DNA of 61,159 nucleotides, counting the filler, from Candidatus Omnitrophota bacterium (GTDB lineage: Bacteria; Omnitrophota; Gorgyraeia; JAGLLT01), in assembly GCA_023140385.1 (NCBI GenBank). It is 4 parts of 4 records of this genome, joined end to end, with 100 filler letters (N's around TTAATTAATTAA, not from the genome) between each part and the next. Parts side by side here need not be neighbours in the genome. Positions count along the whole stretch, not along the records: positions 5,708 to 26,007 come from JAGLLT010000039.1; 3 more parts are not named here. One strand, written 5' to 3'. Each line of letters opens with the position of its first letter. The stretch's first letter is position 1. This document shows positions 16,901-19,900 of the stretch, piece after piece. A program made the position numbers.

Positions 16901-19900
16901 CGACTTAACCTCCAAGAGAGTTTCGGAAGTTATGACGAAGAATCCGATTGTTATCAAAAAGGGCAGGCTTGCCCAGGAGGCTCTGAGCGTCCTGAGGCAA
17001 AAGAAGATTGATGAAGTGCCGGTGGTTGACGATAAAGGCCGGCCGGCCGGCCTGATTGACGTTCAGGATTTACTGAAAGCCGGATTAGTATGAAAGAAGT
17101 GAGTCGGGAGTTAAAAGATAAGATTAAGAAAATAAAACTGTTAGTGCTGGATGTTGACGGTGTTCTGACAGACGGTAAAATAATTTACTTAAGCCCCCCC
17201 CAAAGTGACTCCAAAGCGTTTGACGTTAAAGACGGCTTTGGGATGACCTTGCTTTACAGAGCCGGCATCCGGACAGTTCTTTTAACCGCCCGCGCCTCAA
17301 GGACCATAAAACGCCGGGCAAAGGATATGCATGTCGCGAGAGTCTATCAGAATGCTTTTGATAAACTTTCCGTCTATGAGAAAATTATAAATGAGTTTAG
17401 TGTTTTAAGTGAGGAGGTTTGTTTTGTAGGGGATGATTTGATAGACCTGCCGGTTTTAAGCAGGGTGGGTTTTTCGGTTTGCCCCGCCTGCGCGGTAAAT
17501 GATTTAAAGAGCAGAGTTGATTACATAACTTCCAGGCCGGGAGGCTTCGGAGCGGTGCGTGAAATAGCGGATTTAATATTAAAAGTACAGGGTAAATGGG
17601 CTCAGGTAACTGCCAAATACTACGGATAGAGTGGAAAATGACTAAGTTAATCTTTCTTATTTTATTTATACTTTTTTTAAGCGGTTGTTCCGGAGGGCGA
17701 AAGGCTGATGCTCCAAGTATGTCGGATGGTGATGCCGCGGCAACTGATTCAGCGTTAAATGACGCGGCTCAGCAGAAAATTTCAACATTTTCTCTCTCGG
17801 GTACGGAGAAAGGCCTTAAAAAGTGGGATATTGAGGGTGAGTCGGCCGATTTATTAAGTTCTGATATTGTTCAATTATCGAACGTAAAGGGCAAGAGTTA
17901 CAATGAGGACAATGTAGTTACTGTTACAGCGGAGAAAGGTAAGCTTGATCAAAAAACGAAAGACATGGAGTTGAGCAAAAACGTTGTAGCTGTAACCGAG
18001 GATGGGGCGAGGCTGACTACCGAACGCCTCAACTGGAATGCCGGGGAAGAACATGTTTGGAGCAAGGAATTTGTTGAAATTGAAAAAGACGACATTAAAG
18101 CAAGCGGCACCGGCATCTCAGGCCATCCGAATCTGGAGAAAATGAAATTTAAGCGGGATGTAAAAATAGAGATAGCTCCCGCGACGATTGTAACCTGCGA
18201 CGGGACGCTTCGGATAAATTATAAAGAAAACGTTGCTTATTTAAACGATAATGTCCGCGTAAAGGATGAACGCGGCGAACTTATGGCGGACAAAGCCTGC
18301 GTTTTTTTTGATAAAGATAAGAAGGCAATTAAAAAGGTGATAGCAGAAGGAAATGTGAAAATTAAGAGGGGAGAAAATATTACCTATAGCAGTGAAGCTA
18401 TTTATTATGCCGATGAAGGCAGGGTGGTATTAAAGGGCAGGCCGAAACTTGTGATATATACTATGGATGAGATAAAGGATAAGGATGGAGTTAATACAAA
18501 CAAAAAATCTAATAAAGGCTTATAGCGGCAGACGGGTTGTCGATGAAGTCAATATTGAGATCCGCAGAGGAGAGATAGTTGGTTTGCTGGGGCCTAACGG
18601 GGCAGGTAAGACCACTACCTTCTATATGCTGGTAGGTTTAATTAATCCTGACAAAGGAGGAGTTTTTTTTGGCAGCCGCGAGATAACTAAACTGCCTATG
18701 TATAAAAGGGCGCGTTTTGGAATTGGCTATCTATCACAGGAAACATCGGTTTTTCGCAAGTTAACGGTAGAGGAAAACATTATGGCTGTGCTGGAGACTA
18801 TGCGTATAGCGAGAAAGGAAAGAAAGAAAAGACTGCGAACCCTATTGGAGGAATTGAACATAGTCCATCTGGCCAAAAACCGGGCCTGCACGCTTTCCGG
18901 GGGAGAAAGAAGAAGGCTTGAGATTACCAGGGCGCTGGTCTCGAATCCCGCTTTTATTCTATTGGATGAGCCATTTTCCGGCGTTGATCCGATAGCTGTT
19001 TTTGAGGTACAGCAGATAATTACCCAGTTGAGAGATAGGGGCCTGGGCATATTGCTGACGGATCATAGTGTTCGGGAGACTCTCGCGATTACTGACAGGT
19101 CGTATATAATGGCTGAAGGCAAAATATTAATATCCGGCACAAGCGAGGAGTTAATCAACGACGCTAAAGCCAGGCAGATTTATTTAGGTGAGAAGTTTAG
19201 TATGTAAGTGAGACCCAGACTTATGGAGCGAAGCGAGCATAAGTCTGTTAGTCGAACTTATCCCGCCACGGCGGGATTAATTCAGGCTTATCCCGAAGCT
19301 TCGGGATGCCCTCATTAAGGAGATTTAAGTTATGCAGATTACTATTACGGGCAGGCATTTTGATGTTACAGAACCCATAAAGAAACATATTATGGAAAAG
19401 AGTGAAAGATTTAGCCGTTATTTAAAAAATATAGTTAATATTCACGTAATTTTAACCGTAGAGAACGTACGGCATATAGCTGAAATTGTAATGACAGCCG
19501 CCGACACAAAATTTTTGTCAAAAGAAGAAACAATGGATATGTACGCTTCAGTAGATAACGCTGTAGATAAAATTGAACACCAGCTAAAGGAGTATAAGGA
19601 GCGCCATAAGAGCCATAGAACGAAGCTTAAAGAGGAAGGTTTGGAATCAGATGACCTGAGGGTGGATGATGCTCCCGTGATTGTGAAGGATACGCGTTTT
19701 TTAGATAAACCTATGAGCCCGGAAGAAGCAATTATGGAGCTGGAGCTGGAGGAATTTGGTTTTTTTGTGTTTAAAGATATGAATGAAGGCGATAAGGTAA
19801 AGATTATTTACAAGAAAAAGGATAAAAGTTACGGCCTTATTGATACTTAAGAGTGGGTTTAGTTTTGAATTATAACTTATACTTAGGCATTTTATCCCCC

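Follow-up and report, generated by a model that had tools for sequence, protein, structure and literature searches.

Modular self-folding leader cassettes upstream of start codons in Omnitrophota, probably spreading as a repeat element

Immediately upstream of hpf in the genome of a Candidatus Omnitrophota bacterium (G000) lies a structured sequence that recurs at about 25 further places in the same genome, raising the question of what kind of element it is. The genome-wide survey's note had taken it for a translation-start motif, YAAUUC-hairpin-UCAUURAGGAG, that clamps the Shine-Dalgarno sequence. This motif makes up just the 3′ part of a longer cassette built of modules and about 35 to 230 nt in length, which when complete runs from a 5′ hairpin with an AYYCC/GGRRU base, through U-YAAUUC, a second hairpin (hairpin B) and UCAUUR, to a terminal AGGAG. 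The best explanation, with a probability of roughly 0.6, is a family of modular, self-folding leader cassettes situated just upstream of start codons and spreading as a repeat element. Positions refer to the window, the whole stretch of DNA that was analysed (61,159 nt).

In the hpf leader (19257-19334) U-YAAUUC, a hairpin, UCAUURAGGAG and the start codon were read in the order previously described. The lptB-hpf spacer is 124 nt long and contains three hairpins. The first of these is followed by no T-run, and no terminator-like site was found there; a simple scan of the lptB-hpf-ptsN spacers detected neither a sigma-70-like promoter nor a terminator. The second occupies the 5′ position of the cassette, is of a type that serves as hairpin B in some other copies, and ends in a U (19277) for which the A of AGGAG is a second possible partner. 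At its 3′ end the hpf cassette reads TCATTAAGGAG.

Table 1. Cassettes, their parts and an empty site in the window.
Feature	Position	Strand	Description or basis
10-bp hairpin	19216..19247	+	directly 3′ of lptB-like stop codon (19205-19207)
hpf leader, 5′ hairpin ("hairpin A" position), short type ATCCCGCC-loop-GGCGGGAT	19260..19277	+	sequence
hpf leader, TAATTC: UAAU, 5′ strand of closing helix; UC, half of 2x2 internal loop	19278..19283	+	sequence, fold, 80-copy consensus
hpf leader, hairpin B: outer stem GGC/GCC enclosing perfect inner hairpin	19284..19311	+	minimum-free-energy fold, 80-copy consensus
hpf leader, TCATTAAGGAG: internal-loop UC, 3′ strand of closing helix (AUUA + A), Shine-Dalgarno GGAG	19312..19322	+	sequence, motif counts
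9-nt native spacer, then hpf gene (ATG 19332, 172 aa)	19323..19850	+	Pfam Ribosomal_S30AE, E 3e-21
Second cassette, PTS-EIIA (ptsN-like) leader	19896..20030	+	likely start ATG 20037
ptsN-like cassette, type I 5′ hairpin	19896-19993	+	nested two-hairpin insert 19911-19976
ptsN-like cassette, 3′ module	19996-20030	+	TAATTC 19996-20001, hairpin B 20002-20019, TCATTAAGGAG 20020-20030
Third cassette, TPR-gene leader (ATG 2317)	2234..2311	+	short 5′ hairpin, TTAATC, two hairpins, TCATTAAGGAG 2301-2311
Cassette truncated by contig end	60985..61159	+	decayed older core, type II 5′ hairpin with nested insert, TAATTC, start of hairpin B
Empty site, lumazine-synthase (ribH-like) gene start, own Shine-Dalgarno only	37939..37975	-	comparison with G184

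The 54 genome-wide CATTRAGRRG sites of the survey were reproduced; CATTRAGGAG gave 27 and TCATTRAGGAG 21 matches, and the reversed control GAGGARTTAC gave 5. Within the window 5 motif matches were found against 1.22 expected. The pattern AATTC-N8-60-TCATTRAGGAG matched 17 times in this genome and its reversal not once, and the reported spread through the class was borne out by at least one match in 136 of 401 genomes. At least four matches were present in 46 of the 401, while the reversed control never gave more than two. A hairpin-less form (YAATTC-N0-7-TCATTRAGGAG) had no matches in five genomes (G000, G184, G020, G056 and G291); decayed hairpin-less remnants are present inside stacked arrays. 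No match to the long-hairpin pattern was obtained in viral contigs, and none of the rplL loci from all phyla (80 in the contig scan) carried the motif.

In this genome cassette modules are essentially never found outside a leader context, and all 20 copies tested precede genes with a Pfam family. Among 141 copies from other genomes, an ORF of at least 30 codons follows 136, and in 126 of these the start codon lies 5-9 nt beyond the motif, the distance originally given. Highly expressed genes are favoured downstream (15 of the 136 ORFs encode ribosomal proteins); rpoA, rpoB, rpoZ and the genes for EF-G, IF-1, DnaK, RecA, SecDF and YajC are also preceded by cassettes, and rpmE, L19, gap, secDF, recA, dnaK, rpoA and yajC recur across bacterial families. 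Such a lean to core genes, and its recurrence across families, would also be expected from selection for function.

A helix that covaries and ends at the Shine-Dalgarno GGAG, as first proposed, was confirmed in a larger set of copies. A set of 155 distinct copies, drawn from 37 genomes, had U-A at the Y:R position in 84 cases, C-G in 58, U.G in 5, C.A in 5 and another combination in 3; both the U-A and the C-G state occur within 13 genomes and inside 11 hairpin-similarity clusters. Alignment of 80 long-hairpin copies gave 18 consensus pairs, 13 of them with compensatory changes, and 95.1% of the 1440 cells were paired, compared with 74.8% in shuffles (none of 500 reached the real value) and 30-42% in slid alignments, although these shuffle statistics overstate the significance because the copies are not independent. 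The pairing of YAAU with AUUR stands, but its extent had been underestimated: in 75 of the 80 aligned copies a U precedes Y and pairs with the A of AGGAG, so that the closing helix is 5 bp long and is followed by a conserved 2x2 UC/UC loop. Nor is the enclosed hairpin free in sequence, as had been supposed, since hairpin B has a 2-3 nt 5′ bulge and falls into recurring types with conserved letters, TTA...TAA being shared by 79 of the 80 copies. Its stems contain 33 interior G.U pairs against 10 A.C mismatches, an excess indicating that the structure is strand-specific. The 5′ hairpin, in the form AYYCC...GGRRU, is general across families. It exists in three main types, some with a nested two-hairpin insert in the loop, and in many copies it is absent or reduced to its 3′ half; the nearly invariant hairpin noted after a TATAT box was recovered in about 10 copies in this genome and is one of several 5′ hairpin types.

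Predicted folding did not bear out the claim that the motif clamps the Shine-Dalgarno sequence. GGAG lies outside all helices of the consensus fold, and the mean predicted unpaired probability from Shine-Dalgarno to start codon was 0.50 for cassette leaders, 0.46 for ordinary GGAG-led genes of this genome and 0.38 when the upstream sequence was shuffled. Predicted accessibility exceeded the shuffled-upstream value in 85% of the 155 copies. As modelled, the cassette fold is one that prevents interference, with no measurable enhancement, and a translation enhancer acting by folding alone was not supported by the comparison with ordinary genes. UCAUU as an extended anti-Shine-Dalgarno site was rejected: the 16S 3′ ends of the relatives G086, G114 (two loci) and G063 read CACCUCCUUUCU, and only AAGGAG, not CAUU, is complementary to this tail; the 16S gene of this genome is absent from its assembly. 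In agreement with the survey, Rfam 15 gave no match at cassette sites when the whole window was searched at the gathering threshold. Seven leaders had no matches at E<=1, and the only hits of five leaders with the nested insert scored 16-23 bits, far below gathering scores that ranged from 49 to 428; neither an aptamer nor a ribozyme was matched in either set.

The earlier interpretation, sound as to structure, absence from Rfam and spread in the class, was not supported where it treated the motif as held in place at orthologous genes. Fifteen orthologous sites were compared with G184, which belongs to the same genus: G000 lacks a cassette at 8 of them and has one at 7, and 6 of the 7 filled sites, hpf included, carry a different hairpin type or cassette; the same hairpin is kept only at rplL. 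Spacers remain unchanged across swapped cassettes (ataacaat, agttaca and gggaa), and sequence 3′ of GGAG is unrelated among near-identical copies. Decayed older copies are stacked upstream of current ones, and nested arrays occur. In G043 10 near-identical copies precede unrelated genes, and similar bursts were found in G016, G524 and G269; copies within these bursts vary in their 5′ extent and have a 3′ end fixed at GGAG. Copies have thus been gained, lost, swapped, nested and stacked within one genus and amplified in genome-specific bursts, and the mobile cassette that the survey mentioned as a caveat becomes the main fact. In being gained, lost and swapped even between close relatives the cassette behaves as a spreading repeat would, and not as a switch tied to particular genes.

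The one filled/empty comparison with unambiguous junctions is the rpmE trio, in which the site is empty in G000 and filled in G184 and G027 by a cassette placed after the native AAAGGAA. The insertion thus separates the native Shine-Dalgarno sequence of rpmE from the start codon, with the native spacer retained; the spacer aatagtaaa is common to G000 and G027, and that of G184 is different. These three sequences allow a target duplication of at most 1 nt, while elsewhere imperfect Shine-Dalgarno-like repeats flank many copies. By inspection there are no terminal inverted repeats, the 5′ ends (TTCCG.., ACTCC.. or CCCCCC..) not being the inverse complement of the 3′ ..CATTRAGGAG. An autonomous transposase-bearing partner was not found in this genome, in which no cassette module adjoins any of the 7 Y1_Tnp genes, Y1 being the one transposase family searched.

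A spreading cassette of this kind would be transcribed within the mRNA leader or intercistronic spacer and would probably fold at the RNA level wholly on itself, leaving its own consensus GGAG as the sole exposed purine-rich stretch. The ribosome would then use the Shine-Dalgarno sequence of the cassette, which would supplant a native ribosome-binding site pushed out of range, and this replacement may be why insertions are tolerated even in ribosomal-protein operons. The cassette would function, then, as a self-insulating ribosome-binding site that propagates as a repeat element. Copying might depend on a trans-acting enzyme recognising the hairpin and closing helix or, alternatively, on template switching between the flanking Shine-Dalgarno-like sequences seen at many copies.

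A bolder version of the same reading, which is possible but tentative, is that the cassettes represent a new kind of mobile element that lands just after a Shine-Dalgarno sequence in the orientation of the gene and delivers an insulated consensus Shine-Dalgarno at its own 3′ end. Each copy would then offer a further optimal target, so that the stacked arrays would be accounted for, and even ribosomal-protein operons would be open to colonisation in many families of a phylum. The conserved closing helix, UC/UC loop and bulge might be what an enzyme, or a process guided or primed by RNA, recognises. A Shine-Dalgarno-like flank 5′ of type II copies was read by eye in 8 of 9 cases in family f1, and the rule that the element targets Shine-Dalgarno sequences rests mainly on that family: class-wide, no clear enrichment of Shine-Dalgarno-like 4-mers was seen just 5′ of the 5′ hairpin (26 of 142; control, 18 of 142).

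Among the competing explanations the strongest, although an unlikely one, is a conserved cis-acting RNA of translation initiation, an enhancer or the target of a global regulator, which would be selected at highly expressed genes and whose mobility would be secondary, through leader recombination. Strong covariation together with the conserved unpaired UC/UC loop, the 2-3 nt bulge and TTA/TAA suggests specific recognition, and the enrichment of ribosomal-protein and core genes downstream, with the same gene families across bacterial families, fits such a role, as does the hairpin retained at rplL within the genus. Several copies, moreover, lie inside operons (rplL, rpsM and hpf), where only translation or processing can be affected. 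Against this stand the 8 of 15 orthologous sites that are empty in a same-genus genome and the 6 of 7 filled with other modules, the 265 of 401 class genomes without a match, the genome-specific bursts ahead of unrelated genes and a predicted Shine-Dalgarno accessibility not above that of ordinary genes.

Less probable still is a DNA element of the REP or IS200-IS605 kind, in which the hairpins would be single-stranded DNA sites of an HUH (Y1) transposase, YAAU:AUUR a guide-to-cleavage-site pairing, and the Shine-Dalgarno sequence nothing but a preferred target. The genome has 7 Y1_Tnp (PF01797) reading frames, and cassettes have a hairpin near each end; insertion that is orientation-specific, 3′ of a short target and free of target duplication beyond 1 nt has, in family f1, a compatible geometry. 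In IS608 guide and partner pair around a hairpin, and the arrangement here, with a would-be guide 5′ of the hairpin and its partner 3′ of it, resembles this by analogy. The flanks of all 7 Y1_Tnp genes, however, carry other repeats (GTCCCACC... hairpins, 8 loci) and no cassette. Y1_Tnp occurs in 162 of 201 class genomes irrespective of the motif and is absent from the motif-rich G094 (13 copies, 96% complete) and G086 (7 copies, 95% complete). Cleavage after AUUR would, in addition, make AGGAG a flank, yet it is invariant in all copies. With neither a gene-flank association nor co-occurrence across the 201 genomes, a link to Y1 transposases was rejected.

The two remaining rivals are improbable. 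In an RNA thermometer or riboswitch the AYYCC strand would alternate between GGRRU and the true Shine-Dalgarno sequence, with the apical part or the nested insert as sensor. The base of the 5′ hairpin does oppose an anti-Shine-Dalgarno-like to a Shine-Dalgarno-like strand in most families, ACUCCUU of one type is fully complementary to AAGGAG, and groES and dnaK are among the genes with cassettes; on inspection, however, the two remaining 5′ hairpin types show the alternative pairing weakly or not at all, in many copies the 5′ hairpin is missing or represented by its 3′ half only, no Rfam aptamer was matched, and the Shine-Dalgarno sequence stands outside all helices of the consensus fold, unlike in ROSE, fourU and sequestering riboswitch platforms. 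The most improbable reading, attC-like sites of an integron-type tyrosine recombinase, has in its favour an analogous folded architecture (a terminal helix formed by inverse-complementary cores, then a spacer left unpaired, a further helix bearing extrahelical bases, and a tip that varies), but whereas attC sites have inverse cores RYYYAAC/GTTRRRY, form arrays of cassettes and are served by the IntI integrase, the core letters here are UYAAU/AUURA, copies are dispersed before core genes instead of standing in cassette arrays, and genes stay put while the element moves.

As a spreading repeat the cassette has several known counterparts. MITE-like repeats (Correia/NEMIS, ERIC, BOX and RUP) are likewise short, non-coding, multi-copy, strain-polymorphic, nested or clustered, near genes, and hairpin-forming as RNA if transcribed; the cassettes differ in having no terminal inverted repeats and no target duplication that could be seen, in standing strictly in the orientation of the downstream gene, and in having a consensus Shine-Dalgarno as their fixed 3′ end, with the start codon following after 5-9 nt. 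The modes of action of intergenic repeats given in the available portions of a review comprise promoters, IHF sites, RNase cleavage, insertional inactivation and small RNAs; the terms "Shine-Dalgarno" and "ribosome binding" do not occur in these portions, so that supply of a ribosome-binding site is not among the roles they list (PMC10969869). With REP/BIME sequences and with REPINs and their RAYTs the cassettes share G+C-rich hairpins, modular mosaics and within-genome amplification. REPs are mostly found after genes and in both orientations, whereas cassettes invariably stand upstream of a start codon with only one orientation, do not lie beside Y1 genes and showed no association with them across 201 genomes. 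This genome does contain RAYT-like genes, together with a REP family distinct from the cassettes.

The accessible text on "putative mobile promoters" describes near-identical upstream regions before non-homologous genes, some common to several species (PMC3575422). Near-identical upstream sequence before non-homologous genes is also what was found for the cassettes, but here it is a leader with a ribosome-binding site that is reused: no sigma-70-like promoter was found at the focal sites, and at two others a native promoter or operator lies upstream of the cassette, TTGACA-17-TATAAT at a yicC-like gene and a CIRCE-like inverted repeat at groES. Similar in position are the TAACTGA direct repeats of marine Beggiatoaceae and cyanobacteria, which, in the sections of the report available, are abundant, intergenic and just upstream of start codons, including those in ribosomal-protein operons, strain-specific, suspected to be mobile and of unknown function (PMC4679880). 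According to the same sections they are unstructured heptamer arrays of little Shine-Dalgarno character that overlap the expected ribosome-binding site, and few of the intergenic regions bearing them have a canonical one (PMC4679880). Cassettes too are strain-specific and placed just upstream of start codons, in ribosomal-protein operons among others, but consist of covarying hairpins that end in a consensus Shine-Dalgarno. In RiboJ-type insulators a hairpin just upstream of the ribosome-binding site gives uniform Shine-Dalgarno presentation in any context. The design logic of the cassette, upstream sequence locked in a hairpin, is the same, with the difference that the cassette is natural, repeated and mobile and that no ribozyme was detected. 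No description of the motif was found in the literature outside subscription journals, including searches with Omnitrophota names.

If correct, the spreading-cassette reading would give these bacteria a natural, portable, context-independent ribosome-binding-site module; in each genome it would have rewired dozens of gene leaders, including those of core translation genes and of chaperone genes, on the time scale of species divergence. The cassette would exemplify a repeat element living in the most constrained non-coding position of a bacterial gene and might offer ready-made insulator parts for synthetic biology, while its conserved unpaired features point to a trans-acting partner. A proper name is needed, since the cassette will go on being picked up as a conserved RNA motif by gene finders and in screens for leaders or riboswitches.

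The other cassettes of the window are listed in Table 1. Cassettes break assemblies, with contig ends falling inside copies as in the truncated one listed, and copies are consequently under-counted. The sequencing runs listed for window 17000-22000 were all of DNA, from cold-seep and other metagenomes. Contigs from 4 DNA runs compared with window 18300-20700 showed no joint across a cassette there and are neutral on polymorphism; the rows of intervening letters at 19910-19977/85 arise by cross-mapping of other copies whose type I hairpin lacks the nested insert. The ptsN-like ortholog in G184 has another combination of modules than in this genome, and at the TPR gene the two genomes have the 5′ hairpin and the spacer gggaa in common and differ in the intervening modules. 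At the ribH-like gene, where the site in this genome is empty, a full cassette precedes the G184 ortholog, whose protein is 97% identical, and the ribH-like gene (DMRL_synthase) of G078 is also preceded by one.

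The conserved translation-start structure that the genome-wide survey's note had assigned to about 20 genes is real as a structure, but it probably forms the 3′-terminal part of a self-insulating leader cassette that spreads and brings its own ribosome-binding site. The survey's 54 CATTRAGRRG sites genome-wide were recovered. CATTRAGGAG occurs 27 times in the genome, versus 5 for the reversed control, and AATTC-N8-60-TCATTRAGGAG has 17 matches versus 0 for the reversed pattern. Its recurrence elsewhere in the class was borne out by matches in 136 of 401 sampled class genomes; by our count 46 of them have at least four, and the reversed control has at most 2. 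The pattern also matches 59 of the 301 genomes sampled from the phylum; at least one match was found in 14 of the 108 genomes outside the class, where G410, with four well-formed copies, is the only convincing case. As had been claimed, the motif fronts genes: all 20 copies tested in the genome precede a gene with a Pfam family, including secDF, rplL, hpf, glnA, groES, PTS-EIIA, a PhoU-like gene, two LemA genes and alpha-2-macroglobulin. Rfam, in agreement with the survey, gave no match to any site of the window at the gathering threshold and none to seven leaders at E≤1. The viral contigs scanned with a long-hairpin pattern contained no occurrence, and no description was found in the literature searched, in which subscription journals were mostly outside coverage. 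This is a genuine and widespread motif that the databases did not contain.

Sequence comparison indicates that the helix of the motif is real. From the places of pattern matches, 155 distinct well-formed copies in 37 genomes were fetched, retaining those with the strict core (TCATTRAGGAG) and at least three outer pairs in hairpin B, the hairpin between U-YAAUUC and UCAUURAGGAG. The proposed covariation of the Y:R pair, which joins Y of YAAUUC to R of the core, held across this set (U-A 84, C-G 58, U.G 5, C.A 5, other 3). The U-A and C-G states occur together in 13 genomes, and both were found within 11 clusters of similar hairpin B; the double change has therefore occurred many times. An alignment of 80 distinct copies with a hairpin B of 41–46 nt was folded with RNAalifold, giving 18 pairs, 13 with compensatory changes, and a 2–3 nt bulge on the 5′ side of hairpin B. 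Of 1440 cells 95.1% were paired, versus 74.8% when shuffled (0 of 500 reached it) and 30–42% when slid, with a covariation score of 0.565 versus 0.177; since the copies are mutually related these controls overstate the case, although the signal is large nonetheless. The base before Y is U in 75 of the 80, its partner being the A of AGGAG, and with this pair the closing helix YAAU:AUUR reaches 5 bp, followed by a conserved UC/UC 2×2 loop. Contrary to the survey's description, hairpin B is not of free sequence: it has recurring types, and 79 of 80 copies carry the letters TTA/TAA. There are 33 interior G.U pairs to 10 A.C mismatches, so the structure belongs to the sense strand, either as RNA or as a single strand of DNA. 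We infer that the cassette functions at the RNA level.

The motif makes up just the 3′ end of a longer cassette built from modules. A further hairpin nearly always precedes U-YAAUUC (the 5′ hairpin; median length 58 nt in 142 copies), and at its base AYYCC pairs with GGRRU. Three forms occur in the genome: the near-invariant hairpin after TATAT already seen by the survey (about 10 copies), a long form whose stems covary and whose apical loop is conserved, and short forms. At least 13 distinct copies, found in six bacterial families, carry a nested module of about 66 nt in the apical loop of the 5′ hairpin; its two hairpins, whose inner stems covary, are connected by a conserved CCGGGACUAAGUCCU junction, and it has no Rfam match. 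At C55 ∼5180–5260 (− strand position 987), behind a type I 5′ hairpin, lies a variant unit, a hairpin plus T-run without the TCATTRAGGAG core, whose sequence looks like an intrinsic terminator. On reading of its sequence, the lptB–hpf spacer contains three hairpins, with U-TAATTC after the second; two further complete copies lie in the window.

Positions of cassette parts, neighbouring genes and Y1_Tnp reading frames
Feature	Position	Strand	Remark
Focal motif site	19257–19334	+	within the 124-nt spacer from the lptB-like ABC ATPase gene to hpf
lptB-like ABC ATPase gene, stop codon	19205–19207		
hpf start ATG	19332	+	Ribosomal_S30AE by Pfam
Focal hairpin B	19284–19311	+	from sequence
Focal core TCATTAAGGAG	19312–19322	+	then nine bases, then hpf ATG
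Copy before TPR gene	core 2301–2311	+	from sequence
Copy before PTS-EIIA gene	core 20020–20030	+	from sequence; neighbour of hpf
Fourth copy in window	interrupted by contig end at 61159	+	
Nested module, ptsN leader	19911–19976	+	window
Nested module, second window copy	61053–61119		
Nested module, other places	contigs C38, C45; loci L131, L132, L155, L157, L188, L190, L256, L263, L014		C38, C45 in the genome under study
Y1_Tnp frame in window	∼39498–40172	−	contig C34
Other six Y1_Tnp frames	contigs C13, C45, C10, C22, C26, C54		

Comparison with the same-genus genome G184 (proteins 85–97% identical) indicates that cassettes are not stable at their genes. Fourteen of its 18 leader sites have a clear ortholog here, the others being excluded (one off contig, one without match, two with only paralogs at 47% and 63%). 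Eight of the 14 are empty here (rpmE, a yicC-like gene, folE, ribH at window ∼37940 and four others) and six are filled. The ribH-like gene (start ∼37941), which bears a cassette in G184, lies near riboflavin genes; an FMN riboswitch (92.6 bits, window 39320–39442, −) lies upstream of the latter. The hpf site, a fifteenth comparison, differs in G184, where the 5′ hairpin is of another kind and holds the nested module, hairpin B is doubled and the core is a variant; the coding sequences on either side are nearly identical in the two genomes. The conservation suggested for orthologous genes stands for rplL, which keeps its hairpin (with an extra small one in G184), but the other six of the seven filled sites differ.

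At rpmE the empty site reads AAAGGAA-ATAGTAAA-ATG; in G027 the cassette lies exactly between AAAGGAA and ATAGTAAA, and in G184 it follows an identical AAAGGAA with a different spacer. At this gene the native Shine-Dalgarno therefore precedes the cassette and the start codon follows it, and the insertion duplicated 1 nt at most. In one family of the class, a Shine-Dalgarno-like AGGAR stands before 8 of the 9 type II cassettes (named for their 5′ hairpin) that were read by eye, a clear enrichment; across the class there was no clear enrichment of such flanks (26/142 versus 18/142). Intact copies have decayed older cores stacked upstream, and in certain copies the 5′ hairpin is represented by its 3′ half alone. 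G043 carries 10 near-identical copies before unrelated genes, read from their first codons as probable rpsM, rpsS, dnaK, gap and rpsT, with variable 5′ extent and similarity that ends at GGAG; similar bursts occur in G016, G524 and G269. Comparison of the orthologous sites also places the end of the cassette at GGAG.

Outside the genome under study an ORF of at least 30 codons lies downstream of 136 of 141 copies, and in 126 of these 136 the start codon follows 5–9 nt after the motif, the spacing that had been proposed. In three relatives, the tail at the 16S 3′ end (..CCUCCUUUCU) is complementary to AAGGAG and shows no complementarity to CAUU. The lptB–hpf–ptsN spacers, when scanned, contained no sigma-70-like promoter and no intrinsic terminator. 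About 200 nt before groES (locus L045, contig C39) lies a CIRCE-like inverted repeat (TTAGCACTC-N9-GAGTGCTAA); the cassette is downstream of it and so was inserted into a pre-existing heat-shock leader. The yicC-like gene has a shared TTGACA-17-TATAAT promoter, likewise upstream of the cassette. Cassettes therefore probably occupy transcribed leaders or intercistronic spacers. From GGAG to the start codon the predicted unpaired probability was 0.50 in real leaders versus 0.38 with the upstream part shuffled (real higher in 85% of 155 copies), and 0.46 at 150 ordinary GGAG-led genes of the genome. We read this predicted accessibility as insulation: because the cassette folds on itself, its 60–230 added bases would leave the new Shine-Dalgarno unmasked. 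Predicted folding gave no support for enhancement. The 136 ORFs lean to highly expressed genes (15 ribosomal proteins, rpoB, rpoZ, EF-G, IF-1, ClpP, SSB and Rho; rpoA, DnaK, RecA, SecDF, YajC and gap twice each), which fits selection for expression; it would fit no less well if strong Shine-Dalgarno sequences or heavily transcribed DNA were preferred.

The cassette behaves like the transcribed intergenic repeats Correia, ERIC, BOX and REP, and like ‘reused’ upstream regions (PMC3575422). The nearest analogue in position is the TAACTGA repeat of Beggiatoaceae (PMC4679880), which lies at start codons, including those of ribosomal-protein operons; unlike the cassette it is unstructured and without Shine-Dalgarno character. 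The sections available of a 2024 review of prokaryotic MITEs (PMC10969869) do not list ribosome-binding-site supply among their roles. The cassette lacks defining features of MITEs, REP/RAYT elements, attC sites and thermometers, and matches no Rfam family.

No terminal inverted repeats or target duplication were seen in the cassettes. We infer a copying mechanism, for which an enzyme recognising the closing helix, loop and bulge is one candidate, and template switching between Shine-Dalgarno-like sequences flanking the cassette on both sides another. The genome has seven Y1_Tnp (IS200/RAYT-like) reading frames of 113–327 aa, whose flanks bear another hairpin repeat, distinct from the cassette; that of C26 (GTCCCACC-loop-GGTGGGAC, 8 loci genome-wide) forms with its Y1_Tnp a genuine REP/RAYT-like pair that is not related to the leader cassettes. 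A link to Y1_Tnp was rejected, as it occurs in 162 of 201 class genomes regardless of motif count and is missing from motif-rich G094 and G086. In G063 a cassette (L149) precedes a gene for a large serine recombinase (Resolvase, Recombinase and Zn_ribbon_recom), which is probably an ordinary host gene like the rest; its counterpart here (76% identical, C43:19209–20699) lacks a cassette.

At least four contigs (C32, part of C33, C34 and part of C40) are concatenated in the window with 264 N. Four clustered tRNA genes (60279–60965, +) directly precede the truncated cassette, and one more lies at 34092–34165 (−). Several contigs of this genome, G184 and G043 end inside cassettes, and the repeat therefore fragments these assemblies.
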